From Nitrososphaerota archaeon (GTDB lineage: Archaea; Thermoproteota; Nitrososphaeria; Nitrososphaerales; Nitrosopumilaceae), in the NCBI GenBank assembly GCA_022573895.1, contig JACZTB010000019.1:1-31113 (forward strand): a DNA stretch of 31,113 nt, written 5' to 3'. Shown one piece after another: positions 478 to 20,371 of the stretch; position 1 is the first letter of the stretch, and the number at the start of each line of letters is the position of its first letter. The notes beneath the pieces were generated by a model. The model was not told where the DNA came from, did not search any database, and saw only the letters and a program-made list of their open reading frames with translations. Position numbers and translations under genes: made by a program.

Positions 478-843
478 ATGTCTGTTGAAAAGCAGCTTAT
501 TGAAATTGCTAAACAAGGCAAACTCCTAACCCACAAATGTACTGAATGTAGTTATCTTCATTTATCTACAGCCTATTTTTGCCTAAAATGTGGCAGCAAG
601 GGATTTGAGGATGTCATTTTAGAAGGTAAAGGCTCAATTGCTACTTTTACTATAATTACTATCGCTCCTGCGGGCTTTGAAAAATATACACCATATGCCT
701 TTGTTGTACTTCAACTGGATAACACACATTTGAGAATTTCTGGATTTATGGGAGGAATTGCAACTCCTGCAGATCTGCCAGTTGGAACAAGAGCTAAAAT
801 AACAGGTTTTGATGATCGTGGAATCGTCATCGAAAAGCAGTAA
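478..843 (+). CDS. DUF35 family Zn-ribbon/OB-fold protein (thiolase/HMG-CoA synthase scaffold subunit)
   Basis: ATG 478 lies 1 nt after the thiolase stop. The track ORF begins at 427 inside the thiolase, and I trimmed it. There is an N-terminal CxxC..CxxC ribbon (CTECSY...CLKCGS). It is followed by an OB-like segment (GSIATFTIITIAP..YAFVVLQLDN..ISGFM) typical of DUF35. Confidence 0.8.
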   Translation: MSVEKQLIEIAKQGKLLTHKCTECSYLHLSTAYFCLKCGSKGFEDVILEGKGSIATFTIITIAPAGFEKYTPYAFVVLQLDNTHLRISGFMGGIATPADLPVGTRAKITGFDDRGIVIEKQ

Positions 844-913
844 AATAATTTGCTTGAATCATTAAAAAAAATCAAAATCGATTCTTAATAATTTTACATA
901 GATGATTATTTAC

Positions 914-1075
914 ATGTCAGTAGAAGTTACATGTGGCAAATGTGGAGAAAAGATCACAAACATGAAGATGCTAAAATCACTGAAAGATGTGATGAATCCT
1001 TATAATGGTAAGTGTCCATCATGTGGGCAGAAACTTTCTACATCAGAATTTTCACTTGATGTTCAAGAAAACTGA
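914..1075 (+). CDS. Small zinc-ribbon protein (53 aa), hypothetical
   Basis: This ORF is not in the track because it is under 60 aa. It reads MSVEVTCGKCGEKITNMKMLKSLKDVMNPYNGKCPSCGQKLSTSEFSLDVQEN and ends at TGA 1073-1075. It has two CxxC pairs. An in-frame ATG at 902 is an alternative start. Confidence 0.45.
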   Translation: MSVEVTCGKCGEKITNMKMLKSLKDVMNPYNGKCPSCGQKLSTSEFSLDVQEN

Positions 1076-1229
1076 TTCAAACAAATCCCTAAAAAGATCA
1101 TTTTTATATTTTTAAAAAAATCAGATCTCTGATATTGAAAATCTTTGGTTGTCAGCAATAAATTTGATCTATAACTCTCTGAAATAACATAGTCACAAGT
1201 CTTATTTACCTCTTAAATTAGAAAAATGC

Positions 1230-3323
1230 ATGGAATTGAGTGAAGAGATACCAGAGCTAAAAAGAAGTGGAATCTTACAATCTACATCAAAACGTGTTAG
1301 AATGATCTTCTCTGTTATGGCAAGTCCGAACAGAATTGATATTCTTAGAATTCTAAATTCCAAGGGCCCTTTGACTTATTCCGAATTGAAATCACTTGCT
1401 GGATTTAAGTCAAAAAAAGAAAGTGGTAAATTTGCATACCACTTGAGAAAATTACTAAGACAATCTCTTGTTGCACTTAATAAATCTGAAAGACGTTACA
1501 CCATTACAAATCTTGGAAAACTAGTTTTGAGCTTGGCAAGACAAATTGAAGAAAGATCAATTATTGAAAGTGGAAAAATGTATGTTAGAACATCACACGC
1601 ATCCATTGAAGAATTTAATTCTCATAAAATTATTCAATCATTAGTTCGTGAAGGAAGTCTTCCATTAGAATTAGCACAAAAAATTACTGAAGAAGTTGAA
1701 AATAGAATTTACAAATATCAGACTACCTATCTAACTGGCTCATTAATCAGAGAACTGGTAAATTCTGTTCTATTAGAACACGGTCATGAGGAATATCGAA
1801 ATAAACTCGCACGCCTAGGCCTACCTGTTTATGACGTTCAAGAAATGATTTCCAACTTAGATAATGTGAATAACGGTGCTGAAGGTCTTTTGTTTAACGC
1901 TGGACAGACAATATTTTCTGAACACCTACTTACTAACATCTTGCCAAAAGATGTTGCAGATTCTCATCTTTCTGGAGACTTGCACATTACCAACCCTGGA
2001 ACTTGGTCAATGATTCCTGATACAATATTTGTTAATGTTAAAGAATTGATTGAAGATGGGATAAATCTTGGTGGAAAATATCTCGATGTATCACGAATTC
2101 CTGCATCAAAAAAACTTGATGAGATTACAAGTTCATTGTCTATTATAATTTCTCTTCTTTCTAAAGAAGCTTCACAAGAAATTGTACTTGATGGATTAGT
2201 TCAGTTGTTTTCAAAACATTCAAAATCTCTTCCAGAACTTGAACAAAAACTAACTGCTGCATTTGCAACTGCCTCTACAACTTCCAAATATAACAAAACA
2301 AGTACTAATGTCTCAATTCGGTTACAATTAGGTTCTGAAACAAAAATAATTAATTCAATTATTAATGCATACAAAAATTATACAAAGATAACACCAATTC
2401 CAAAAATTGGTTTGATAATAGATCATGACAAAGGAAAGATAACTGATGTTTCAGAATCAATATCTGAAATAATTTCACTTGGTGGAAAAGTAATGTTTGC
2501 TCAAGGTCAAACATCGAGTAATGGTGTAACAAATGGATCTACAAAGAGTACTAGCATACTTTCAATAATACTACAATCTGTTTCCATAAACCTACCAAGA
2601 CTTGCTTTTGAATCAAATAAAGATGAAACCTACTTTAGAGCAAGACTTGCATTACTAATGAAACCTGCACTATCTTCAATGGCCCTAAGAAAAAAAGATA
2701 TTTCAGATCTTACTAGAAGAGGACTCAATCCAATTCTTGCAAAGAACACCCAATACATGCAAAGAAGTTCTGTTACCCTTGTTGTAAACTTGGTAGGACT
2801 TAAAGAAGCAGTCTTTAACATACTTGGATTCAAAGATAACAAAGAAGGACGTGGAATTCTTTACAAAGTCATTGAAACTGCAGTTGACGTTGCAGCCAAA
2901 AAAGGTACAGAATTAGGCGTTCCTGTGGCTATATGTATGACTGAAACTAAAGGGTCACATCGCTTTGCTACTCTAGATGGTGAAAAATATGGCAAGAATT
3001 CTGCTCTCAATTCAATGGAGGGTGATTCTTATTCTGATGGAGTGGTGATTAACGCCTCTGAAATTCTTGATTATACCAATAAAAGTGAGCCTATTTCTGA
3101 ATGTAACAAATTCTCAAAATTGCTTAATGGTGGATTACTTATAACATTGCAAATTGATAAAAATGCAAAGGTTGATGAAATCAAAAAATCAATTGAGAAA
3201 GCATCTACACTTACACCTTCTTTCAAACTTGTTAAAAGAACTGCAATATGTGGTGAGTGTGGTTTCAAAGATGAACCATTTGAAGACAAGTGCCCAAAGT
3301 GTAAGTCACCATATGTTGTCTGA
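1230..3323 (+). CDS. Winged-helix (ArsR-like) + ATP-cone + NrdD-like (class III RNR-like) fusion protein lacking glycyl-radical tail; putative RNR/dNTP-responsive regulator
   Basis: The ORF is 697 aa. The N-terminus is wHTH (NRIDILRILNSKGPLTYSELK...RRYTITNLG). An ATP-cone follows (MYVRTSHASIEEFNSHKIIQSLV...LVNSVLLEHGHEEY). The long body contains VADSHLSGDLHITNPG, which resembles the HxxGxIHIHD segment of NrdD. The C-terminal ribbon is CGECG-x10-CPKCK and sits only 5 aa before the stop, so there is no RVxGY glycyl-radical motif. Confidence 0.75.
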   Translation: MELSEEIPELKRSGILQSTSKRVRMIFSVMASPNRIDILRILNSKGPLTYSELKSLAGFKSKKESGKFAYHLRKLLRQSLVALNKSERRYTITNLGKLVLSLARQIEERSIIESGKMYVRTSHASIEEFNSHKIIQSLVREGSLPLELAQKITEEVENRIYKYQTTYLTGSLIRELVNSVLLEHGHEEYRNKLARLGLPVYDVQEMISNLDNVNNGAEGLLFNAGQTIFSEHLLTNILPKDVADSHLSGDLHITNPGTWSMIPDTIFVNVKELIEDGINLGGKYLDVSRIPASKKLDEITSSLSIIISLLSKEASQEIVLDGLVQLFSKHSKSLPELEQKLTAAFATASTTSKYNKTSTNVSIRLQLGSETKIINSIINAYKNYTKITPIPKIGLIIDHDKGKITDVSESISEIISLGGKVMFAQGQTSSNGVTNGSTKSTSILSIILQSVSINLPRLAFESNKDETYFRARLALLMKPALSSMALRKKDISDLTRRGLNPILAKNTQYMQRSSVTLVVNLVGLKEAVFNILGFKDNKEGRGILYKVIETAVDVAAKKGTELGVPVAICMTETKGSHRFATLDGEKYGKNSALNSMEGDSYSDGVVINASEILDYTNKSEPISECNKFSKLLNGGLLITLQIDKNAKVDEIKKSIEKASTLTPSFKLVKRTAICGECGFKDEPFEDKCPKCKSPYVV

Positions 3324-3347
3324 AATTCGTAAATGAAAAACTAGTTA

Positions 3348-3398
3348 CGATCATTTTGTAAAACTTTTTGTTCAGTTTTAGGTGTAGCGATCATTGTA
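3348..3398. promoter_or_regulatory. Two copies of CGATCATT(TT)GTA, 40 bp apart, in the nrdJ upstream region
   Basis: CGATCATTTTGTA occurs at 3348-3360 and CGATCATTGTA at 3388-3398. A related GATCATTTTT occurs at 1096-1105, upstream of the wHTH-ATP-cone gene. CG-containing motifs are uncommon in this AT-rich intergenic DNA. Confidence 0.3.
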
Positions 3399-3418
3399 GT
3401 CTACTGTTAAAATTATGC

Positions 3419-3437
3419 TAATATGAACATCATATTA
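3419..3437. promoter_or_regulatory. Perfect 8-bp-arm palindrome TAATATGA-ACA-TCATATTA upstream of nrdJ (candidate operator)
   Basis: Read directly from the sequence; the arms are exact reverse complements. The site lies about 90 bp upstream of the nrdJ start, and about 50 bp upstream of a TTTATA TATA-like element at 3487-3492. Confidence 0.35.
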
Positions 3438-3528
3438 GTGGTGTCAATATTATTGAACCGGGCTTTAAGAAAAAATTGCAGAATCATTTATACCAGAACT
3501 AATCTTATCCTTTATGGGGAGATTATAA

Positions 3529-6180
3529 TTGGATAATTCACAAATAGAAAATACTATCAATCAGATCCGTAAGCGCAGTGGCACAGTAACTGTCTTTAAT
3601 AAAGATAAAATCTCAAATGCAATATTCAAGGCATTGGCAGCCACCTCTAGAGCCGATCGTGGTCTAGCTGAACAACTCACAGATAGTGTAGTTGACAAAC
3701 TAGTAGAACAAGGATTTACAAGTTCTAGAGCGCCTACTGTTGAAGATATTCAAGATATTGTAGAGTCAACTTTGATCGATAGCGGTAATAGTGATATAGC
3801 AAAAGCATACATAGTTTACAGACACGAGAGAAGAAAATTAAGAGATGAAAAAAAGAAAATCTTAAATCTAAAGTCTCTTGATCCAGTTTCCAAAAAATTT
3901 GATTTGAATTGTTTGAGAGTCCTAGCATCAAGATATCTTTTTAGAAATGGAAAAAATGAGATTATTGAATCTCCAACTCAAATGTTTGAAAGAGTTGCAA
4001 TTCTAGTAGGAATTGGTGATATTCTATATGATTCACAAATATTTGACAAAGCAGGAAATACAAACCAGAATATAGATGAAGCAGAATCTTATCTTGAGAA
4101 ACTAGATGCCTTTGACTATAAGTTCAAAGTAGGAGATTATTATCTAAATAAATGGCATTTTAGATCCTTAATCAATCATTATGTAACACTTGCAACCAAA
4201 GGTCAGATGAAGGTTAGCTTCAAAGAACTTTTGACATTACTAGCAGCAAAGAAACTTGATAGTTATGCAGATAGAATAACCGAAAACTTTGAGATGATGA
4301 CCTCACAAGACTTTCTACCAAATTCACCAACAATGATGAATGCCGGTGGAAGATTGGGACAACTTTCAGCATGCTTTGTACTTGGAATGGGGGATAGTAT
4401 GGAACAAATCATGAAATCAACCTCTGATGCAGCATTAATCTTCAAGTCAGGCGGTGGAGTTGGAATCAACTACTCTGATCTTCGTGAGGAAGGTGATATT
4501 GTAGCATCAACATCTGGTGTTGCATCAGGTCCAGTATCTTTCATGAATATCATCAATACTGTAACTGAAGTTGTAAAACAAGGAGGAAAAAGACGTGGTG
4601 CAAACATGGGAATTATTGAAACATGGCATCCTGATGTTGAAAAGTTCATCACAAATAAAACAGAACCAGGTATTTTGGAAAACTTTAACGTAAGTGTTGG
4701 CATCTGGGAAGACTTTTGGCACGCACTTGTTAACACTAAAGATGGTAACTATGTCTTACGTAGCCCACATGACAAAAAACCCGTTAAAGAAATCAACGCA
4801 CATCAGCTAATTGATCTGATTGCATTATCTGCATGGAAAAGCGGAGAACCTGGATTGATCTTCTTTGATCAAATTAACAAACATAATGTATTTGCCAAAG
4901 CCAGACAAGCACCACTAAGAGCAACAAATCCATGTGGTGAACAAAGTCTCTATCCATACGAATCATGTAATCTAGGTTCTATCAACTTGGTAAATCTTGT
5001 AAAGAGACAAGCAGATGGAACTTATGAATTTGATTGGCAAAGATATGAAGAAATAATCAGAAAGACAACAAGATTCCTGGATAATATCATTGATGTAAAC
5101 AATTATCCAGTTGAAGAAATCACTGTAGCATCAAAAGAGTCTAGAAGAATTGGACTGGGAGTGATGGGAGTTGCTGATCTCTTATACAAACTAAGAATTC
5201 CATACAACTCCAAAGAAGGATATGAACTACAGGCCAAACTATCTGAGGCTTTAACATACTATTCAATGGAAGAAAGTGTTGCTCTTGCTAAATCTCGTGG
5301 TGAGTTTCCACTTTGTTCCAAGTCAGAATATCCCGAAGGAAAAATTCCAGTTGCAGGATACTATGAAAAACCAAAAGAATCTCATTCCTATGAATGGGAT
5401 GCACTAATTGAGAAGATCAAAAAGTATGGTATTAGAAATGTCTTGGCTACCACAGTTGCCCCAACTGGTACACTATCTATGATTGCAGATTGTTCAAACG
5501 GAATGGAACCTGCATTTGCTCTTGTGTTTGAAAAGCGAGTCACTGTTGGAAGATTCTTCTATACAAACAAGATTGTAGAAGAAGTCTTAAAAGAACATGG
5601 TCTTTACAGCGATGAACTTCTTGCAAAGATTGCAGACAACTATGGTTCACTGAAAGGATTAGATGAAATTCCACAATGGATGCAAGATACATTCGTTACA
5701 GCAATGGATATCCATTGGGCTGATCATCTTATGGCTCAAGGAGTATGGCAAGACTGGATTGGAAATGCAATTGCAAAAACAATCAACATGCCATATGATG
5801 TGACAGCAGAAGATGTCAAATCTGCATATCTGTTAGCACATGAACTAGGACTAAAAGGAATTACTATTTATCGCGATGGCTCTAGACACAAGCAGGTACT
5901 TCACATGACAAGTGAAAATGCACAAAAGATATTTGAGGTTACACCAACTGAGTATGTTACTCGTTATGTTGCAGCAAATATCACAAATCCATACATCAAA
6001 TCTCAAGTTAATACTGCACTTGCGTTAAAAGTTCATGACGAAGAAATTAAGATTGAACCTCAAAAACAAGAAGAGGTTTCAGAAGATCGTTTATGTCCAA
6101 CATGCAAAAACAATCTTGTCTTTGTAGAAGGTTGCAGTATTTGCATTGAATGTGGATACAGCGGTTGCACTTCTGGATAA
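3529..6180 (+). CDS. nrdJ: Ribonucleotide reductase, class II (adenosylcobalamin-dependent), with N-terminal ATP-cone
   Basis: The ORF is 883 aa with a TTG start. No ATG is available upstream of the ATP-cone (VTVFNKDKISNAIFKAL...AKAYIVYRHER). The RNR active-site signature TNPCGEQSLYPYESCNLGSINL is present. The C-terminus is a Cys-rich ribbon (CPTCKNN..CSICIECGYSGC). A GGGGAG lies about 8 nt upstream of the TTG. Confidence 0.93.
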   Translation: MDNSQIENTINQIRKRSGTVTVFNKDKISNAIFKALAATSRADRGLAEQLTDSVVDKLVEQGFTSSRAPTVEDIQDIVESTLIDSGNSDIAKAYIVYRHERRKLRDEKKKILNLKSLDPVSKKFDLNCLRVLASRYLFRNGKNEIIESPTQMFERVAILVGIGDILYDSQIFDKAGNTNQNIDEAESYLEKLDAFDYKFKVGDYYLNKWHFRSLINHYVTLATKGQMKVSFKELLTLLAAKKLDSYADRITENFEMMTSQDFLPNSPTMMNAGGRLGQLSACFVLGMGDSMEQIMKSTSDAALIFKSGGGVGINYSDLREEGDIVASTSGVASGPVSFMNIINTVTEVVKQGGKRRGANMGIIETWHPDVEKFITNKTEPGILENFNVSVGIWEDFWHALVNTKDGNYVLRSPHDKKPVKEINAHQLIDLIALSAWKSGEPGLIFFDQINKHNVFAKARQAPLRATNPCGEQSLYPYESCNLGSINLVNLVKRQADGTYEFDWQRYEEIIRKTTRFLDNIIDVNNYPVEEITVASKESRRIGLGVMGVADLLYKLRIPYNSKEGYELQAKLSEALTYYSMEESVALAKSRGEFPLCSKSEYPEGKIPVAGYYEKPKESHSYEWDALIEKIKKYGIRNVLATTVAPTGTLSMIADCSNGMEPAFALVFEKRVTVGRFFYTNKIVEEVLKEHGLYSDELLAKIADNYGSLKGLDEIPQWMQDTFVTAMDIHWADHLMAQGVWQDWIGNAIAKTINMPYDVTAEDVKSAYLLAHELGLKGITIYRDGSRHKQVLHMTSENAQKIFEVTPTEYVTRYVAANITNPYIKSQVNTALALKVHDEEIKIEPQKQEEVSEDRLCPTCKNNLVFVEGCSICIECGYSGCTSG

Positions 6181-6226: not shown

Positions 6227-7345
6227 ATGAACAAGAAGATTTTAGGCGTAGTTGCAGGCATAGCAATAATTATTGCAATAGCAGCTACAGTTTTGACCTT
6301 ACCAAGTTCAGAAATTATTACTATTCTAGAACCTAATGAAAAAATTGGTCTTGTAATTAATTCTCCAAATCAATCTATAACCCTACAAGAATTAGATCAA
6401 ATTTACTCTGAAGCATCAAACACTGGAATTGGAAGAAGCAATGTCTATCTTTTTTGGAATCTAGTTGAACCTGTACGAGGAGAATATGATTGGCAACAAT
6501 CCGACATACTGATGAATCTCAATAAAAAAAATAATCTCAAAGTCACACTTTACTTTTCTATAATTAACGGAGAAACACTTGGACCTTTTCCAAGTTGGAT
6601 TGGAAAGCCGCCTCTTAATTCCTTAGGAGAAGATAGAGTTGTTAGTGTCCTTGATGCAATATTATCTAGGTATGACATTATAGATACTCTAATTCTTTCA
6701 GGTGATACGGAATCTCAATTTAGATATCATGAGCAAAACATTCCTGTCTACAAAGATCTATTCAACATAGTCTATGATAAAATAAAAGAGAAACATCCAG
6801 ATGTAAAAATAGGAAATGCATTTGCATTACATAATGTTTTGAATAAAAATTTGCAACATATCGTATCTGATTTAGCTATCGGTGATTTTGTTGCCTTTTC
6901 TTATTCCCCAGTAGATATTCTCAATGAAATTGTTAAAACTCCACAACAAGCAAAAAAAGATCTACAACAAGTATTTGATCTGGCAGGTGATAAAAAAGTT
7001 GGAATCTTTGAGATTAGTTGGAGCACCTCAGATTTTGTTGAGGGAAGCGATTCTACACAAACAGAATTTTTAGAAAAATCCTTTGAATTTTACACTGAAA
7101 ATGAATCTGAATTAGAATTTTTTACTTGGTATAGACAGTATGATAGGCCTGAAGGAACATGTATAATTGATGAACTAGAAATTGGTGAAGATACTCTAAC
7201 TGTTGGGGGCTCTGGTTTTGGAAGTAGTGAGTATGTAATTGAAAGACTAAGCAAGTACATCTGTAATGCTGGTTTGATAAATAATAATGGGACTCCAAAA
7301 TCAAGTTGGAATGAATTTAAAAAACAAATTGAAATGATCAACTAA
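6227..7345 (+). CDS. Membrane-anchored/secreted protein, glycoside-hydrolase-like (clan GH-A TIM-barrel-like), function uncertain
   Basis: There is an N-terminal hydrophobic anchor (ILGVVAGIAIIIAIAATVLTL). The segment YLFWNLVEPVRGEYDWQQSDILMNL resembles the W-x-x-EP-x-x-G-x-YDW motif of GH-A enzymes. A possible nucleophile context is VGIFEISWS. Confidence 0.4.
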   Translation: MNKKILGVVAGIAIIIAIAATVLTLPSSEIITILEPNEKIGLVINSPNQSITLQELDQIYSEASNTGIGRSNVYLFWNLVEPVRGEYDWQQSDILMNLNKKNNLKVTLYFSIINGETLGPFPSWIGKPPLNSLGEDRVVSVLDAILSRYDIIDTLILSGDTESQFRYHEQNIPVYKDLFNIVYDKIKEKHPDVKIGNAFALHNVLNKNLQHIVSDLAIGDFVAFSYSPVDILNEIVKTPQQAKKDLQQVFDLAGDKKVGIFEISWSTSDFVEGSDSTQTEFLEKSFEFYTENESELEFFTWYRQYDRPEGTCIIDELEIGEDTLTVGGSGFGSSEYVIERLSKYICNAGLINNNGTPKSSWNEFKKQIEMIN

Positions 7346-11991: not shown

Positions 11992-12046
11992 TTACTTCTG
12001 ATATTGATCAAAATAATTTTATACATAGAATTTATATCAATTTTTG

Positions 12047-12631
12047 ATGTTTACAGGAATTATAGAAGGAATTGGTAAGGTAGAAAAGATTTCCAAAAAT
12101 ACAAAAAATAGGAGTGCTATTCAAATGACTGTAAATCTAGGAAAATATGCTAAGGGATTAAAAATTGGACAAAGTGTTGCTCTTAATGGAGTTTGTCTTA
12201 CTGTAACAAAACTATCAAAATCTAGTTGTATTTTTGAAATGATTGAAGAAACTACAAAAAAAACTGATCTTGGAAATCTAAAGGTTGGTGGAATTGTAAA
12301 CATTGAACGAAGTTTAAAGGTAGGTGATAGACTGGAAGGACATTTTGTTTTAGGTCATGTCGACGGAGTGGGAACAATTAAAAAAATTCTAAAAAAACCT
12401 AAAGAAGTTCAAGTTTGGTTTGAAGTTCCAAAAAAACTATCAAAATATGTAGTGAAAAAAGGTTCTATTGCTATAGATGGAATCAGTTTTACTATTGTTG
12501 ATATTAAAAACACTCTTGCAACAGTGTCAATAATTCCTCATACTATTAACGTTACAAACTTTCGCACCAAAAAAGTGAGCGACAAAGTTAATATTGAAAT
12601 TGATATTCTTGGAAAATATATTCTAAAATAA
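12047..12631 (+). CDS. ribE: Riboflavin synthase, bacterial-type alpha chain (two lumazine-binding repeats)
   Basis: MFTGIIEGIGKVEKIS...SVALNGVCLTV...GDRLEGHFVLGHVDGVG...GSIAIDGISFTIV is the canonical MFTGI(I/V) family. The track start TTG 12044 immediately precedes ATG 12047. Confidence 0.92.
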   Translation: MFTGIIEGIGKVEKISKNTKNRSAIQMTVNLGKYAKGLKIGQSVALNGVCLTVTKLSKSSCIFEMIEETTKKTDLGNLKVGGIVNIERSLKVGDRLEGHFVLGHVDGVGTIKKILKKPKEVQVWFEVPKKLSKYVVKKGSIAIDGISFTIVDIKNTLATVSIIPHTINVTNFRTKKVSDKVNIEIDILGKYILK

Positions 12632-12709
12632 AGCCAATTATCTACCATTTTAGTGGTAATTACTACTTTTTTAGTAAACTATATAATTAGTTTGTAACAA
12701 TTTTTGTAT

Positions 12710-13375
12710 ATGTACCTTGAATCTGGATTAGAATCTCTAAAACGTGGAGAATTTATTCTATTGTTTGATTCAGCTGGACGAGAAAATGAAATTGATATGG
12801 TTGTAGCAGCAGAATTTATTACACCAGAACATATTGCAAGAATGCGTCAACATGCTGGTGGATTATTATGTATTGCAATAGATCATAATTTTGCAACATC
12901 GCTTGAATTAAGATATATGCATGAAATTCTTTCTGATTCTCCAATTTCAAACAAGGAAATGATTATGGGTTTAGCACCTTACGGTGATTATCCAACTTTT
13001 TCATTATCTGTAAATCATTATCAAACTTATACCGGAATTACTGACAAAGATAGAGCATTGACAATTAAAGAAATGGCAAATATCTTTAATGTTGAAAATA
13101 AACAGAAAAAATTTGCTTCATCTTTTAAAACTCCAGGTCATGTTCCTTTATTGATAGCATCCAAAGGAATGTTAGCTGCACGTCAAGGACATACTGAAAT
13201 GTCTGTTTATTTAGCTCAAATTGCAGGATTGACTCCAGTTACTGCAATTTGTGAAATGATGGATGCTGAAACATATAATGCACTTTCTGTAGATAAAGCA
13301 GAAAAATTTGCAAAACAAAATGGGTTTCCATTAATTGATGGGAAAGAACTTTTAGAATACGCTAAGGTGCATTAG
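12710..13375 (+). CDS. ribB: 3,4-dihydroxy-2-butanone 4-phosphate synthase
   Basis: GEFILLFDSAGRENEIDMVVAAEFITPEHIARMRQHAGGLLCIA...GHVPLL..GMLAARQGHTEMSV matches the DHBP synthase signature. ATG 12710 is preferred over the track's TTG 12704. Confidence 0.92.
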   Translation: MYLESGLESLKRGEFILLFDSAGRENEIDMVVAAEFITPEHIARMRQHAGGLLCIAIDHNFATSLELRYMHEILSDSPISNKEMIMGLAPYGDYPTFSLSVNHYQTYTGITDKDRALTIKEMANIFNVENKQKKFASSFKTPGHVPLLIASKGMLAARQGHTEMSVYLAQIAGLTPVTAICEMMDAETYNALSVDKAEKFAKQNGFPLIDGKELLEYAKVH

Positions 13376-13377
13376 TT

Positions 13378-13794
13378 TTGAATATTGCTATAGTGGTTTC
13401 GGAATTCAATGAAAAAGTGACATCTAGGATGCTTTCTGTAGCTCAAGAAAAAGCAAACTCGATGAAATTAAAAATAGTCTATACATGTAAGGTTCCAGGT
13501 GCCTTTGACATGCCTATTGTTATAGATGCATTATTGAAGAAAAAAGATGTTGATGGCGTAGTTACTTTAGGTGTGATAATTAAGGGCCAGACAAAACATG
13601 ATGAGGTGATCTCTCATTCTACTGCAAAATCCTTTATTGATTTATCCATAAAATACCAAAAACCTGTTTCTCTAGGAATATCCGGTCCTGGAATGCAGGA
13701 AAGGCATGCTTATGCTAGAATAAGACCAGTTGCTGAACGTGCCGTTGAAGCTGTTGTAAAAATCTCTAAAGAACTACAGAGGATCCAAAAGTGA
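13378..13794 (+). CDS. ribH: 6,7-dimethyl-8-ribityllumazine synthase
   Basis: IAIVVSEFNEKVTSRML...VPGAFDMPIVIDALLKK.DVDGVVTLGVIIKGQTKHDEVISH matches the lumazine synthase pattern. The TTG start lies 2 nt after the ribB stop. Confidence 0.9.
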   Translation: MNIAIVVSEFNEKVTSRMLSVAQEKANSMKLKIVYTCKVPGAFDMPIVIDALLKKKDVDGVVTLGVIIKGQTKHDEVISHSTAKSFIDLSIKYQKPVSLGISGPGMQERHAYARIRPVAERAVEAVVKISKELQRIQK

Positions 13795-14543
13795 TTCAAC
13801 TTAGCATCTTGAAAATTAGTGGATATGGTTCTTGGACATTGACATTAGGAAGTGATAGAGAGCATGAACTTCAAATGCTTCAAGCATCCCTTTACAAAGA
13901 AGTACAGAAACTATTTTCTGAAAAAAATTGTCTAGTTTTTCCTAATCGAGCAGATGAATTTTTTGTAGTTTCAAACGGGCTTGAGTTGGATGATCACATT
14001 CAAATCCAAAAAACACTCGAAAAATTATTTGATATACGTTTAACAATTTCTATCGGTTATGGTCAATCTCCATTTGAAGCAAACTTAAACGCATATGAAG
14101 GAAAGAAAAATGAAACCATCTTAAATAAAGAACACAATATTTTTGGTTTTGTTAATGGTAAATCTGACTTAAAAGTTACAATTATGCATTTAGATATAGA
14201 TGATCTTACTTCAAAAAGACAAACTAATTCTCCTTATGAGATTTCATTAATGATTTTTGAGCTATATTCAAAGATGTCAAAATTCTTTCTGGAAAAAAAT
14301 TCTCTTACCTTTTTTATGGGTGGTGATAACTTTATAGTAATTGCAAGTGATGATGCAAAAAATTCTGTACAGAATTTTATTGATATAATTAAAAGTGATG
14401 ACAAAATTTCTTTAAACTGTGGAATTGGTAATGGACATACTGCTAGAGAAGCAGTAAAACTAGCCACACAATCTCTTGATACTATACGAAAAATTCGTGA
14501 TTCAGGAAAGAAGAAACCTGAAGTTTATGAATTATCATGTTAA
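13791..14543 (+). CDS. arfA: GTP cyclohydrolase III (archaeal, FAPy-forming)
   Basis: MIQLSILKISGYGSWTLTLGSDREHELQMLQASLYKEV..LVF..RADEFFVVSNG...FFMGGDNFIV...CGIGNGHTAREA is colinear with MJ0145-type GCH III. The GTG start overlaps the ribH stop (GTGA). Confidence 0.88.
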   Translation: MIQLSILKISGYGSWTLTLGSDREHELQMLQASLYKEVQKLFSEKNCLVFPNRADEFFVVSNGLELDDHIQIQKTLEKLFDIRLTISIGYGQSPFEANLNAYEGKKNETILNKEHNIFGFVNGKSDLKVTIMHLDIDDLTSKRQTNSPYEISLMIFELYSKMSKFFLEKNSLTFFMGGDNFIVIASDDAKNSVQNFIDIIKSDDKISLNCGIGNGHTAREAVKLATQSLDTIRKIRDSGKKKPEVYELSC

Positions 14544-15727
14544 TTAAAAATCTAAGTATTTTATCAGGTCAAGAATTAAACTTTGTTTTAAATACTAATA
14601 TTAAAATTCAGAATAAAATATTTAAAAAAATTCAACCAGAAATTAGACCAAGTGTTAAAGAAGAATCTATAGATTGTGAAGGCCTTCTATTAATTCCAGG
14701 ATTCATCAATGCTCATACACACATAGGTGATTCCATTGGAAAAGATGTTTTACTTAACAATTCTGTTGATAAAAGAATTCATCCTGTATTCGGAGCCAAA
14801 TCTAAAATTCTAAAAAATACTTCTCAAGAAAACCTAGCTAATTTTATGAAAAACACATGTCATTCAATGATCAGAAAAGGGATTACCACATTTGTTGATT
14901 TTAGAGAAGGAGGATTAGATGGTGTTACTTTACTCAAAAAAGTATTATCCGATGTTCCTTTACGTTCAATTATCCTAGGTAGAGTTGAATTTTTTCAAGA
15001 ACACGCTGAAATCAGAAAAAACCTACCTTTTCCTAGAGAAAAAATTAAAGATCTTGCTAAGATTCTCAAAAAATCTGATGGAATTGGTATAAGTGGCGCA
15101 AATGAGAATAGCACATCAGTACTAAATTATTATTCAAAAACAACAAAACTTAGAGTTATACATTCCTCTGAAACGAGGCAAAGTGTTTCCACATCAAAGA
15201 AAATTACTGGAAAATCTGAGACAGTTCGAGCATTATCTCTAAAACCTCATTTTTTGATTCACATGACTTATGCTTCAAAAGGTGATCTTAATGCTGTGGC
15301 AAAGAGAACTAGAGGAATTGTAATCTGCCCAAGGGCTAACTCATCTCTAGCAGAGGGAATTCCAGACATAGAATTGATGCAAAAGGCAGGATGCACATTA
15401 GCTTTAGGTACGGATAATGTGATGATAAATTCTCCTGACATGTTTAGAGAAATGGATTTTCTTTGGAAAGTAACTATGGGAATTCACAAAAAAAGAATCG
15501 ATCCAAAAGAAATTCTTAAAATGGCTACAGTTAATGGAGGAAAGATTTTGAAAAAAAACATTGGAGTGATTGAAATTGGGAAAATTGCTGATTGTATTTT
15601 TCTTGACAAGCATGCATTAGATTTAGAACCAATGCACAATCCACATGCATCAATTGTTCATCGAGCATCAGAATCTGCAATCAAAGCTGTAATGATTGGA
15701 GGTAAAATCGTACATGGAAAAATCTAA
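14537..15727 (+). CDS. Amidohydrolase-superfamily enzyme, deaminase-type motif set (ATZ/TRZ / guanine-cytosine deaminase-like); candidate riboflavin-pathway deaminase or deformylase
   Basis: Motifs seen by eye are PGFINAHTHIGDS (HxH), VIHSSETRQ (HxxE), FLIHMTY (His) and LALGTDNV (Asp). The ATG overlaps the arfA stop by 7 nt (ATGTTAA). Its 3' end overlaps the reductase start by 14 nt. Confidence 0.8.
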   Translation: MLIKNLSILSGQELNFVLNTNIKIQNKIFKKIQPEIRPSVKEESIDCEGLLLIPGFINAHTHIGDSIGKDVLLNNSVDKRIHPVFGAKSKILKNTSQENLANFMKNTCHSMIRKGITTFVDFREGGLDGVTLLKKVLSDVPLRSIILGRVEFFQEHAEIRKNLPFPREKIKDLAKILKKSDGIGISGANENSTSVLNYYSKTTKLRVIHSSETRQSVSTSKKITGKSETVRALSLKPHFLIHMTYASKGDLNAVAKRTRGIVICPRANSSLAEGIPDIELMQKAGCTLALGTDNVMINSPDMFREMDFLWKVTMGIHKKRIDPKEILKMATVNGGKILKKNIGVIEIGKIADCIFLDKHALDLEPMHNPHASIVHRASESAIKAVMIGGKIVHGKI

Positions 15728-16370
15728 ACCTTATGTAATTCTAAGTGCAGCAATATCCGTTGATGGAAAGATTGCTACTAGAACAGGTGATTCAAATCTA
15801 TCTTCAAAACAAGATAGAGTAAGACTTCATAAACTAAGATCTAAAGTAGATGCAATTCTTGTTGGAAAAAATACAGTTTTACTAGATAATCCTTTGTTAA
15901 CTGTACGATATACTAAAGGAAAAAATCCAATTAGAATAATTTTAGATTCTAAAGGTACTATATCTGAAAAATCAAAAATCCTACAAACAAGTTCTAAGAT
16001 TCCAACAATTATAGCTGTATCCGAAAAAATCAGTAAATCAAACTTTGATAAACTATGTAAATTTCCTGTGGATGTAATTATTGTTGGCAAAAATTCTGTG
16101 AATATAAAATTATTATTGAAAAAACTTTTCGATAAAAAAATTAATACAATACTTGTTGAAGGTGGTGGAACTGTTAACTGGGAATTTATCAAACATAATC
16201 TTTTTGATGAATTAATTATTACATTATCTCCATTTTTAATTGGAGGAAAAGATGCTATTTCTTTTGTTCAGGGACAAGGTTTTGAAAAAATTTCAAACTC
16301 ACCTAATCTCCGCCTTAAATCAATCACGAGGCTCAAAAATCACCTTGTTTTGTGTTATGTTAAGGTCTAA
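15714..16370 (+). CDS. arfC: 2,5-diamino-6-ribosylamino-4(3H)-pyrimidinone 5'-phosphate reductase (RibD C-terminal-domain type, archaeal)
   Basis: MEKSKPYVILSAAISVDGKIATRTGDSNLSS..D..RLHKLRSKVDAILVGKNTVLLDNPLLTVR...ILVEGGGTVNWEF is colinear with the MJ0671 family, which also begins MEKKPY. I therefore prefer ATG 15714 over the track's TTG 15696. Confidence 0.88.
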   Translation: MEKSKPYVILSAAISVDGKIATRTGDSNLSSKQDRVRLHKLRSKVDAILVGKNTVLLDNPLLTVRYTKGKNPIRIILDSKGTISEKSKILQTSSKIPTIIAVSEKISKSNFDKLCKFPVDVIIVGKNSVNIKLLLKKLFDKKINTILVEGGGTVNWEFIKHNLFDELIITLSPFLIGGKDAISFVQGQGFEKISNSPNLRLKSITRLKNHLVLCYVKV

Positions 16371-18184: not shown

Positions 18185-18700
18185 TCAGAATATTTGTTGC
18201 ATATCCTTTTTCAATTCATCAATTTTCTTTGAATATGCTTTTTTAGATTTATCATTCTTTTTTAGATTTAGAACATTTCCACATGTTGGGCATTTAAACA
18301 TACCATCAAGCGCTGACTCAAAGGTCACTCTTGGACAATCTACATTTCCACAATGATAAAAGTCAGAAGCATTTTCATAATCTAATCTTTGTTGTAATCT
18401 TTCTGTAATTTTCTTTTTTTGACTTTCAATAAAATGTTCAACTTCTTCTCTTCTGGTTCTCCATCTGTAGACAAACCAACCTTTTCTTTCATCTTTTACT
18501 CTGATTCCAGTAATGAGAGATTTTCCAAATAGATCATACAATACTTTTCTTACCATGTTAATTCTAAGACCAGTTGAACTTGCAATTTCTTCATCGGTTG
18601 CATCTTCAGCTTTTAGTAAAGATCTAGCTACTTTGAGATATTCCTCTCCTCCAATCATTGAAGCAATTCTAACAAAAGGATCTTCATATTTGCCTATCAA
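18185..18700 (-). CDS. tfe: Transcription factor E (TFE alpha, TFIIE-alpha homologue)
   Basis: The winged helix is ATDEEIASSTGLRINMVRKVLYDLFGKSLI...GWFVYRWR. The Zn ribbon is YHCGNVDCPRVTFE...FKCPTCGNVL. Length and architecture are typical. Confidence 0.88.
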   Translation of the reverse strand: MIGKYEDPFVRIASMIGGEEYLKVARSLLKAEDATDEEIASSTGLRINMVRKVLYDLFGKSLITGIRVKDERKGWFVYRWRTRREEVEHFIESQKKKITERLQQRLDYENASDFYHCGNVDCPRVTFESALDGMFKCPTCGNVLNLKKNDKSKKAYSKKIDELKKDMQQIF

Positions 18701-18726
18701 CTCTAATCCCTCAAAATTTTCTACTA

Positions 18727-19260
18727 TTAATCTCTTGTTTCTTTTACTTGTACATTTTTACCCTTTTTTGTGGGTATTATCTTCCTTTTTGCATCTGGAA
18801 ACCCTTTCTCAAATTGTTCACCTTTTTGAATACGATCTAAAAGTATTGCTAGCGCACTAATCTCTGAGTGTGGTTGACTTCCAACTCCTACATTATAGTC
18901 TGCTAATTCATAAATTTCTCTAGGTACTTTTTCAGCACCTACAACAACTAATAGATTTTCTTCTTTACGAAGTTTCTCCTGTATTTCATTAATGTTTTCT
19001 CCATACATTGTAAGATGCACAACTCTAAAGTTTTCCTCCTTTTTCTTTTTTACAATAGATTTCCATTTATCAATAAATTCAACAACAAAATTTCCTCCCC
19101 AAGTTTTATTGATCTTTTCTAAAGATTTTTTGATTTCAGGATTGACTTCAGTCATAAAAATCCTATTTGCCCCAAATGCCCTTGAAACTAGGGCAACATG
19201 TGTTGTAACTCTATCATCTCTCACAAGACGTTGTCCTATTCTAACTACCTCAATTACCAA
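18727..19260 (-). CDS. trm56: tRNA (cytidine56-2'-O)-methyltransferase aTrm56 (SPOUT)
   Basis: [27 protein letters not shown]...HLTMYGENI...[39 protein letters not shown] is colinear with Pyrococcus aTrm56, which starts right at this strand. I therefore prefer TTG 19260. The track's ATG 19296 would add 12 aa and overlap hflX by 47 nt. Confidence 0.88.
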
Positions 19261-20371
19261 ATGTTTTTTTAACTCCTTCCAAAATATTTCTCTCAAATTT
19301 AGGTGAATTCTGATTTTTTATAATATTTTTGATCAATTCTTTAAGTTGCTTAACATTTTTTCCTGTTTTTGCAGAAACTGAAATCCATTTTTTATTTTCA
19401 GTTAAGTTAAGAATGTCGATTTTTTGCTCAATCTCTTCAATTTCTAACAAATCTACTTTGTTTAACGCATAGATCATCTTGTCTTTTTCAACTCCTAATT
19501 CACTTAATGTTCTCATACAACTAGCAAATTTCTTTTTTAATTCAACTAATGAATCACTAATGTCAATTACAACAATTATGATATCTGTATGTTTTAATTC
19601 TTCTAATGTTGATTTGAATGCATCTATCATATATGCAGGTAATTTACTGATAAAACCAACTGTATCTGAGATTAAGAATGGTTCTTCATTAATTATTACC
19701 CTTCGTATAGTTGTAGAAAGTGTTGTAAACAATTCTTTACTCTCAGCTTTTGTTTCTCCTGTCATTTTGTTAAACAATGTTGTTTTTCCAGAAGAAGTGT
19801 ATCCTGCTAGTGAAATTATCTTGAATCCCATTCTCTTTCTTCCCTGTCTATGAAGCTCTCTTTGTTTTCCGGCTTTTTCCAGTTTAGATCTTACTGTCTG
19901 CATTCTATGTTTGATATCATTATAGTAAACATCAACCTCAAATTTTCCTATTCCCATAAATCCTGGTTGCTCTCCCATATTTGAAAGACGGACTTTTTCT
20001 TTCGCTCTGGACATCTCGTACCTTAATTGAGCTAGTTTTACTTGCAATTTTGATTCTGCACTTGATGCTCTACTTTCAAAAATTTGAAGAATTAATGCTT
20101 CTCTATCTAAAACTTCTTTATGTAAAGCGGATGCAAGATTATAGTTTTGGCTTGGTTTTAAAATTTCATCAAATACAATTACATCTGGTCTGAGTTTTTC
20201 TGTTAATTCTTCTAGTTTCTCTAAAACTCCACCACTAATTCCATATTTTCGTTTTTGTAGAACTTTTGGTGTAAGTGTATGAACTATGTGATATCCTGCG
20301 GAATCACACAATCCTTTGGCTTCATTAATTGCATCCTCTTTATCGTATGTGATTAAAATTGCCGACTTCAT
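19250..20371 (-). CDS. hflX: GTPase HflX
   Basis: The HflX N-domain is [44 protein letters not shown]. The G-domain P-loop is [19 protein letters not shown] and NKVD motifs are also present. Confidence 0.9.

Follow-up and report, generated by a model that had tools for sequence, protein, structure and literature searches.

Contig JACZTB010000019.1 of a Nitrososphaerota archaeon (family Nitrosopumilaceae, assembly GCA_022573895.1) was analysed over a stretch of 31,113 nucleotides (nt), which we refer to as the window. Near its left end lies a gene for a 697-residue protein that combines an ArsR-type winged helix, an ATP-cone and a long body related to NrdD, the class III anaerobic ribonucleotide reductase. 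The next gene on the same strand is nrdJ, which encodes the class II, adenosylcobalamin-dependent ribonucleotide reductase and is the presumed target of the 697-residue protein (Table 1). Bacterial NrdR is a repressor made of a Zn ribbon and an ATP-cone that reads ATP and dATP and binds paired boxes upstream of nrd genes. NrdR is rare in archaea, and the transcriptional control of ribonucleotide reductase is therefore essentially unknown there (PMC9110341). An earlier note on this DNA, made from the sequence alone, had proposed that the 697-residue protein is a catalytically dead NrdD that senses nucleotides and regulates nrdJ, perhaps as an archaeal counterpart of NrdR. Here we weigh that proposal.

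Domain architecture of the 697-residue protein

A protein identical to the query is already present in the databases, and near-identical proteins are recorded for many Nitrosopumilus genomes, under the names 'helix-turn-helix domain-containing protein' or 'anaerobic ribonucleoside-triphosphate reductase'. All three regions of the protein gave Pfam matches above the curated cut-offs, which bears out the architecture that the earlier note had read from the open reading frame: HTH_20 at residues 30-82 (E 7.9e-8) together with DUF7347 at residues 26-100 (E 2.8e-10), the ATP-cone PF03477 at residues 117-189 (E 3.9e-8; 34.2 bits with a cut-off of 25.8), and NRDD, PF13597, with its best stretch at residues 448-693 (E 2.1e-26). 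The winged helix carries the recognition-helix signature GKFAYHLRKL, followed by the beta wing RRYTIT, and its residues G66, F68, Y70, H71 and L72 are invariant across 61 diverse homologues. In the predicted model described below it consists of helices within residues 21-77 and a two-strand wing (strands 81-84 and 89-92), with a predicted local distance difference test score (pLDDT) of 84-89. The ATP-cone aligns with the N-terminus of a genuine Bathyarchaeia NrdD, and the string HLSGDLHITN, in the NrdD-like body, corresponds to residues 246-255. At the C-terminus stands the ribbon C674-x2-C677-x10-C688-x2-C691, which reads CGEC-x10-CPKC and is followed by KSPYVV and the stop codon. The protein thus ends 6 residues past the last ribbon cysteine; the earlier note had the ribbon right but counted 5, a trivial discrepancy. 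Its assignment of the downstream gene also holds: the NrdJ product scores 720 bits against TIGR02504 (cut-off 400) and has an ATP-cone of its own (E 1.7e-22).

Table 1. Features of the regulator-like gene, the spacer and nrdJ (positions in the window)
Feature	Position	Strand	Basis or detail
Putative promoter of the regulator-like gene	1195..1208	+	TATA-like TTATTTA at 1202-1208, 22-28 nt before ATG
Gene for the 697-residue protein (winged helix, ATP-cone and NrdD body predicted to be dead)	1230..3323, stop codon included	+	ATG start
ArsR-type winged helix-turn-helix, residues 26-105	1305..1544	+	HTH_20, DUF7347
ATP-cone, residues 117-197	1578..1820	+	PF03477; VRTS...F...KI ... LIRExVN...EEYR
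NrdD-like alpha/beta-barrel body without catalytic residues, residues 198-665	1821..3224	+	Foldseek, alignment
NrdD-type C-terminal Zn ribbon, residues 666-697 (C674, C677, C688, C691)	3225..3320	+	Alignment
GATCA elements, each followed by a T run	3349-3353, 3389-3393; degenerate copy near 3369	+	Spacer comparison
Conserved palindrome TATGA-N3-TCATA, here TATGAACATCATA	3422..3434	+	Candidate protein-binding site
Conserved block past the palindrome, consensus GTAGCGGTGTCAAnATTATTGAAC	3435..3458	+	Spacer alignment
Putative nrdJ promoter and leader	3487..3522	+	TATA-like TTTATA at 3487-3492; Shine-Dalgarno-like GGGGAGA at 3516-3522
nrdJ, class II adenosylcobalamin-dependent ribonucleotide reductase with its own N-terminal ATP-cone; presumed target	3529..6180	+	TIGR02504, ATP-cone; start codon TTG at 3529

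Loss of reductase chemistry within a predicted NrdD fold

We aligned the protein with a T4-type NrdD (for which the T4 numbering was verified), E. coli NrdD and two genuine archaeal NrdDs. The glycyl-radical motif RVxGY is absent after the ribbon, as the earlier note had remarked: no residue of the query aligns with T4 G580. The thiyl cysteine, T4 C290, is missing too, since the finger loop 'PMGCRS' aligns with 'AQGQT-S' of the query, which is free of cysteine up to about residue 570. Opposite the second active-site cysteine, T4 C79 ('NCCL'), the query has Thr265 ('DTIF'), and in 61 family members this position is T, E, V, A, S, N, G or K, never C. The HxHD motif, which holds the substrate triphosphate and comprises residues 111-115 in T. 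maritima (PMC4493059), is likewise absent: the query reads H252-I-T-N255, and the family pattern is H-x-[SNCTAP]-N. The four Zn-ribbon cysteines align with T4 C543, C546, C561 and C564 and are invariant in all 61 homologues; the same set is invariant, or nearly so, at NLPR (N454, P456, R457), D583, Y601 and G634-G635. Against the NCBIfam NrdD equivalog TIGR02487 the query scores 83.2 bits with a cut-off of 326.35, and the protein is therefore related to NrdD but no standard NrdD. With the tail, the two cysteines, HxHD and the TIGR02487 score, it fails five NrdD-defining features. Judged by its sequence, the 697-residue protein cannot be a reductase, because the glycyl-radical tail, both active-site cysteines and HxHD are all missing.

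The predicted fold is still clearly that of NrdD, a ten-stranded alpha/beta barrel. Since a sequence search of the solved structures in the PDB was nearly blind (best E 0.044), fold comparison was needed, and we used an AlphaFold2 model built on the homologue alignment (mean pLDDT 82.3, predicted template modelling score 0.75). The first 36 Foldseek matches in the PDB were all class III reductases (E 5e-21 to 7e-13), including 9d3x, 9dca, 8p2c, 4coj and 1h79 at E 5e-21 to 1e-13, with a template modelling score per target of 0.51-0.66; class I and class II reductases ranked far behind. The middle domain is thus detectably homologous to NrdD by both PF13597 and Foldseek, and the catalytically dead scaffold of the earlier note is well supported by the alignment and the model together. 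A six-frame scan of the window found no radical S-adenosylmethionine motif CxxxCxxC in any plausible open reading frame, and neither an activase nor NrdR is present among the 22 open reading frames of the window scanned with Pfam, which agrees with the remark that no NrdG-like activase is encoded here.

Selection on the DNA-binding-type and nucleotide-sensing-type modules

The ratio of non-synonymous to synonymous substitution rates (dN/dS) was computed for the query against 32 gap-free orthologues at a synonymous divergence (dS) of about 1. It is 0.091 for the whole protein, 0.109 for the NrdD-like body, 0.030 for the ATP-cone and 0.009 for the winged helix. Identity to other Nitrososphaeria follows the same order, with 73% in the winged helix, 63% in the ATP-cone and 21-44% in segments of the body. 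Against the members from Bathyarchaeia the ATP-cone is the best conserved region at 57%; the winged helix has 37% and the body segments 15-34%. Over 61 sequences with identity down to 25%, 38 positions are invariant. The open reading frame is real and not a chance one, since an identical protein is on record, homologues are many and dN/dS is 0.09 at dS of about 1. On these data the protein is plainly functional, its DNA-binding-type and nucleotide-sensing-type modules being the most constrained and the ones that also survive in the most eroded relatives (grade C, below).

Grades of erosion and a probable origin in nrdD

In the first homologue search, 4100 proteins scored at E<=1e-3. When representatives of 50%-identity clusters were searched exhaustively, 1252 clusters passed the same threshold and 192 reached E<=1e-30, and relatives with an intact open reading frame were confirmed in at least 596 species-representative genomes. 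The regulator-like family belongs to the Nitrososphaeria and Bathyarchaeia, and we distinguish three grades in it. Members of grade A, which includes the query, have 630-720 residues, come from Nitrosopumilales, Nitrososphaerales, Methylarchaceae and other Nitrososphaeria, and end directly past the ribbon. Members of grade B, from Bathyarchaeia, have 740-800 residues and keep a vestigial tail with a conserved 'SRxSAKYLP' in the place of 'SRVTGYYQ' of genuine NrdD, so that Ala stands for the radical Gly (for instance in loci L083:8001-10310, L084:8001-10307 and L085:8001-10301). About half of them keep the finger-loop cysteine ('TGCRF'), and in all of them the Cys79 position is Glu or another non-cysteine. 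Grade C, with 480-590 residues, comes from Caldarchaeales ('Aigarchaeota'; loci L091:6001-7698, L093:6001-7581 and L094:6001-7740), where the proteins carry the annotation of ArsR regulators. This grade has shed the ribbon and a large part of the barrel, and the winged helix and the ATP-cone are retained despite the further erosion of the body. The grades read as a stepwise erosion of a radical enzyme into a putative regulator, which lost its tail first, its ribbon next and parts of the barrel last.

Other glycyl-radical families include alanyl radical enzymes, and a 2024 survey of non-canonical glycyl radical enzymes reported class III reductases with the canonical Gly only (PMC11528403), which suggests that the present family escaped notice. 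The Bathyarchaeia members in which Cys is kept and Gly is changed to Ala may have residual radical chemistry; for the query the idea of an aminoacyl radical enzyme is ruled out, as it has neither the tail nor those cysteines.

At three loci of Bathyarchaeia the grade B gene is immediately followed by a redoxin gene and a further NRDD gene. The latter encodes a genuine NrdD, with RVTGYY or RITGYY, the CC finger loop and the first cysteine. The regulator-like protein and the product of the adjacent nrdD share 35% identity from the ATP-cone to the C-terminus (E 6e-127); between the query and the same NrdD identity is 24% (E 9e-35), which places the query much nearer to this enzyme than to any NrdD of bacteria or phages. 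These comparisons are most simply read as an origin of the family by tandem duplication of an nrdD that carried an ATP-cone, followed by gain of the winged helix and loss of catalysis. The duplication would fall in the ancestor of Bathyarchaeia and Nitrososphaeria, and the upstream copy would be the one that gained the ArsR-type winged helix. One genuine archaeal NrdD (P0263, 1206 residues) has a large insertion at the finger-loop cysteines.

Linkage to reductase genes across a change of reductase class

Among 80 Nitrosopumilaceae species-genome loci, 75 are informative in that the contig reaches the position of nrdJ, and in all 75 nrdJ lies directly downstream on the same strand, usually across a spacer of about 205 nt. 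In a further 80 metagenome loci, fetched with a Nitrososphaerales member, 72 had more than 330 nt of sequence past the stop codon; nrdJ comes next in each of the 72, including clades only 46-56% identical. Overall the adjacency in ammonia oxidisers of the gene pair singled out by the earlier note holds at 147 of 147 informative loci. At single loci of Nitrososphaerales and Methylarchaceae nrdJ follows the regulator-like gene as well; at one locus the two genes stand tail to tail, in convergent orientation.

The partnership with a reductase persists across a change of class: the partner is nrdD in the anaerobic Bathyarchaeia and nrdJ in the ammonia oxidisers. From Bathyarchaeia to Nitrosopumilus the same block of genes recurs, comprising the reductase, pyrB, pyrI, NAC, PUA, HTH_3, an HflX-like GTPase, Trm56 and TFIIE-alpha; we saw it at loci L083, L085, L087-L090 and L096, and part of it is present in the window (18188-19296). 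This recurrence suggests that a class II reductase took the place of the class III reductase within one and the same locus. Apparently the swap took place with the regulator-like gene staying where it was, so that the putative regulator outlasted the reductase it was born beside.

For the NrdJ proteins of the Nitrososphaerales and Methylarchaceae loci (L087:8462-10774 and L089:8309-10513) the precomputed Pfam hits are lgN, lgC and TSCPD, with no ATP-cone; the regulator-like protein would therefore carry the sole ATP-cone at those loci.

Candidate DNA sites in the nrdJ spacer and upstream of the regulator-like gene

In the spacer between the two genes the top dyad is the palindrome TATGA-N3-TCATA, exact in 49 of 76 Nitrosopumilaceae spacers, mostly once per locus and at a constant position; within the window alone the pattern occurs at chance level. 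Its arms are conserved, its centre is variable and changes in the arms are not compensatory, which argues for a DNA site over an RNA hairpin. We regard the palindrome as a candidate site for the regulator-like protein. The block that follows it can still be recognised in the Nitrosopumilaceae spacers that differ most, all other parts of which have diverged, and the TTTATA and GGGGAGA blocks are conserved in 64 aligned spacers. The majority fraction is 0.75 in the spacer and 0.70 at synonymous sites of the same loci; only the best blocks exceed the synonymous baseline, and modestly, for which reason we do not use phylogenetic footprinting as strong evidence. Nearer the stop codon, GATCAT averages 1.57 copies per spacer, or about 7.6 per kb, compared with 0.38 per kb as the background of the loci, and 40 of 76 spacers have at least two copies. 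Because the GATCA repeats coincide with T runs directly behind the stop codon, we rejected them as operators; instead of binding a protein, they may serve as oligo-T terminators for the upstream gene.

Upstream of the regulator-like gene, the distance of the TATA-like box from the ATG would fit a leaderless mRNA, if the box serves as promoter. The imperfect dyad ACAAG-T-CTTAT (1195-1205) overlaps this TTATTTA, and TAGTCAyAAGTCTTATTTAC is the best conserved block in the 200 nt upstream of the gene over 80 orthologous loci; the dyad ATAAG-N1-CTTAT is exact in 18 of these 80 regions. A perfect inverted repeat, ATCAGA-TC-TCTGAT, occupies 1120-1133 on the + strand, about 100 nt upstream of the gene, and is not among the conserved dyads of the 80 upstream regions.

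Several other candidates were set aside. NrdR boxes (ACACNANATNTNGTGT, up to two mismatches) gave three hits with 1.9 expected and none in the nrdJ spacer, that is, chance level only. Rfam at a relaxed threshold showed no riboswitch or other relevant known RNA element at 800-3700; with this result and the uncompensated changes in the palindrome arms, we also rejected a structured leader in the 205-nt spacer. A single operator conserved across clades was rejected in view of the clade-specific palindromes: TTGAC-N5-GTCAA is present in 5 of 8 loci of another clade, and 10 Nitrososphaerales spacers have no conserved palindrome. Upstream of nrdJ at the Methylarchaceae locus (L089:8101-8308) there are three direct repeats like GGAGATGTTTTRAAT, about 30-37 nt apart, a candidate regulatory pattern unlike the Nitrosopumilaceae palindrome.

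A candidate nucleotide-sensing regulator of the reductase locus

On balance, we think that the protein is probably a nucleotide-sensing transcription factor for the reductase locus, functionally analogous to NrdR. We take this view because of the domain homology, the strong purifying selection on the winged helix and the ATP-cone, and the linkage that persists across the change of reductase class; that the protein binds DNA and ATP or dATP, which operator it would use and which way it would regulate are points of inference. The proposal of the earlier note that the protein senses nucleotides and regulates nrdJ is therefore the best-supported reading, in the form of an inference. Its comparison with NrdR stands in one sense: the functional analogy is fair, but the protein does not belong to the NrdR family.

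NrdD enzymes are dimers, and the NrdD-like body would serve as a dimer scaffold in which two ATP-cones read the ATP/dATP ratio. When ATP or dATP binds at the cone of NrdD, the balance between dimer and tetramer changes, as does the order of the cone pair (PMC11226230), and in NrdR the ATP-cone controls DNA binding via ATP/dATP (PMC9110341). In the present protein, occupancy of the cones would alter the relative placement or the oligomeric state of the two winged helices: these directly adjoin the cones on the N-terminal side, so that a bound nucleotide would affect their geometry and, with it, DNA binding. The DNA bound would lie ahead of the neighbouring reductase gene, which is nrdJ in the window but nrdD in Bathyarchaeia, with neighbours in nucleotide metabolism such as pyrB and pyrI as possible further targets; either repression or activation is conceivable. 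A more detailed version strikes us as possible, if rather doubtful: a sensor made from a complete reductase subunit that reads ATP/dATP at the cone and deoxynucleoside triphosphates at a retained dimer-interface specificity site, ancestral to Bathyarchaeia, Aigarchaeota and Thaumarchaeota, which stayed while the class III enzyme gave way on the spot to the B12-dependent class II enzyme as the lineage turned aerobic.

A number of observations weigh against a dedicated regulator of the reductase locus. Caldarchaeales (three loci) and two other lineages have no adjacent reductase gene. The neighbourhood as a whole is an old conserved block (pyrB, pyrI, NAC, PUA, HflX, Trm56, TFIIE), so adjacency to the reductase may partly reflect inherited gene order. 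In the window nrdJ has an ATP-cone of its own, so ATP/dATP control of the enzyme's activity is independent of the regulator. Conservation of the palindrome, at 0.81-0.87, is only modestly above the 0.70 of synonymous sites. The palindrome is situated about 60 nt upstream of the nrdJ TATA-like box, which is atypical for a repressor and would fit activation or a complex arrangement better than simple occlusion, and palindromes differ by clade though the recognition helix is nearly invariant. Finally, the sets of regions upstream of the regulator-like gene and upstream of nrdJ have no dyad in common. A shared operator of the two promoters was rejected on this ground, and the suggestion of the earlier note that the protein might also regulate itself is left without support.

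Some of these points would be accommodated by a nucleotide-sensing transcription factor whose main targets lie elsewhere, in a wider nucleotide-metabolism regulon that includes, for example, pyrB and pyrI, the adjacency to nrdJ being mostly inherited. In Caldarchaeales, where no reductase gene is near, the gene and pyrB point away from each other, only about 80-90 nt apart, and to judge by this arrangement pyrB may be its target there; in Bathyarchaeia and several lineages of Nitrososphaeria pyrB and pyrI adjoin the gene pair, within the old block. We nevertheless consider a regulon of this kind rather unlikely as the principal role, as no pyr gene is present among the 22 open reading frames scanned in the window, the Nitrosopumilaceae pair stands without pyrB and yet keeps its spacing and its spacer elements before nrdJ, and the protein is itself reductase-derived, as a tandem paralogue of nrdD. 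A partner of the reductase at the protein level that does not bind DNA, either as a regulatory or scaffolding pseudo-subunit or as a nucleotide buffer, with the winged helix used for protein contacts, seems improbable to us. Dead enzyme paralogues frequently serve as regulatory subunits, the Bathyarchaeia member is a close paralogue of the adjacent NrdD with which it could in principle form a heterodimer, and body and ribbon are still under purifying selection (dN/dS 0.11). In ammonia oxidisers, however, the partner would be the class II NrdJ, of another class than the parent enzyme; the most constrained part of the protein (dN/dS 0.009) is an ArsR DNA-binding-type winged helix with the YHLRKL signature; and in Caldarchaeales it is the body that has eroded and the winged helix and ATP-cone that are kept.

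That the protein is still an enzyme, using unconventional radical chemistry with a partner in trans or a new activity in the old barrel, is very improbable. Its host belongs to an aerobic clade; neither the query nor any Nitrososphaeria member checked has the tail, either of the cysteines or the triphosphate motif; the window has no activase; the score is far under the NrdD family cut-off; and a fused ArsR-type winged helix would go unexplained. An enzyme would be in keeping with the database name of anaerobic ribonucleoside-triphosphate reductase, with the conservation of the barrel, NLPR, D583, Y601 and the Zn ribbon, and with the Bathyarchaeia members, about half of which combine the finger-loop cysteine with Ala for the radical Gly, alanyl radical enzymes being known elsewhere (PMC11528403). 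Stepwise loss along the lineages, of the tail and then of the ribbon and parts of the barrel, is also what one would see in a decaying nrdD relic without present function, but the selection data effectively refute a relic: the open reading frame is intact in the 596 or more species-representative genomes, dN/dS is 0.09 overall at dS of about 1, and the 38 invariant positions persist in sequences down to 25% identity.

Comparison with known systems

As a regulator of the reductase locus, the protein would resemble NrdR in joining a DNA-binding module to an ATP-cone and in being encoded at reductase loci, and the expected logic, in which the ATP/dATP ratio governs binding upstream of nrd genes, is that of NrdR (PMC9110341). 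The construction is different. NrdR has about 150 residues and an N-terminal Zn ribbon, whereas the query has 697 residues, with an ArsR-type winged helix at the N-terminus and an entire dead NrdD body; its sole Zn ribbon is of the C-terminal NrdD type, and sites like NrdR boxes do not rise above chance. The protein is an independent invention relative to NrdR, in archaea, where NrdR is rare.

It is homologous to NrdD over the stretch that runs from the ATP-cone through the Zn ribbon, has a predicted barrel fold of the same kind and is a tandem paralogue of archaeal nrdD. It differs in the absence of the glycyl-radical domain, the thiyl cysteine, the second cysteine and HxHD and in the extra winged helix, and as a regulator-like gene beside a class II enzyme in aerobic ammonia oxidisers. 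With ArsR/SmtB proteins (HTH_20, HTH_5, DUF7347) it has the winged-helix fold and the recognition-helix signature in common, and some family members are annotated as ArsR; here, however, the winged helix is fused to an ATP-cone and an enzyme-derived body of about 500 residues, and metal-sensing sites are not expected. A further parallel is NrtR, reportedly an enzyme-derived transcription factor composed of a Nudix-like domain and a winged helix. In both cases a winged-helix regulator would sense its ligand through an enzyme fold from the pathway that it controls, with catalysis lost or reduced. Fold and ligand differ between the two, and the sensor in the present protein would be a full reductase subunit together with a separate ATP-cone. 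The most fitting description of the family is a novel architecture for a nucleotide-sensing regulator, formed by exaptation of a reductase subunit.

We found no description of the family in the full-text literature searched, which does not cover subscription-only papers. As a widespread and strongly conserved family it is a candidate for reductase regulation in ecologically dominant archaea. In the databases searched, the name 'anaerobic ribonucleoside-triphosphate reductase' on entries that include Nitrosopumilus and Nitrososphaerales is an annotation error, one that could mislead metabolic reconstruction, for example by the inference of anaerobic capacity.

Other features of the window and of related loci

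The Pfam content of the 22 open reading frames of the window comprises thiolase-related, ribosomal and RNA-processing genes, a riboflavin cluster, TFIIE-alpha and Trm56. The riboflavin cluster (12044-16370, + strand) consists of riboflavin synthase, DHBP synthase, lumazine synthase, archaeal GTP cyclohydrolase III, an amidohydrolase and RibD_C. Between the thiolase/OB-fold (ChsH2-like) genes and the regulator-like gene there is an open reading frame of 53 residues at 914-1076 (+ strand) with a double Zn ribbon. Its DNA is matched in nearly all Nitrosopumilaceae loci, but in a comparison for which the query was translated one base out of frame, and locus L088 has a similar small Zn-ribbon gene behind the thiolase pair.

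Directly 3' of nrdJ, at 6227-7345 (+ strand), an open reading frame of 372 residues with an N-terminal hydrophobic segment and no Pfam match is conserved in most Nitrosopumilaceae loci. At several loci (L056:10267-14076, L080:10287-13412, L082 and L143) the match to nrdJ ends at residue 469 and the downstream gene lies 1-1.7 kb farther away than usual, which is consistent with an intein or another insertion at this place in nrdJ.

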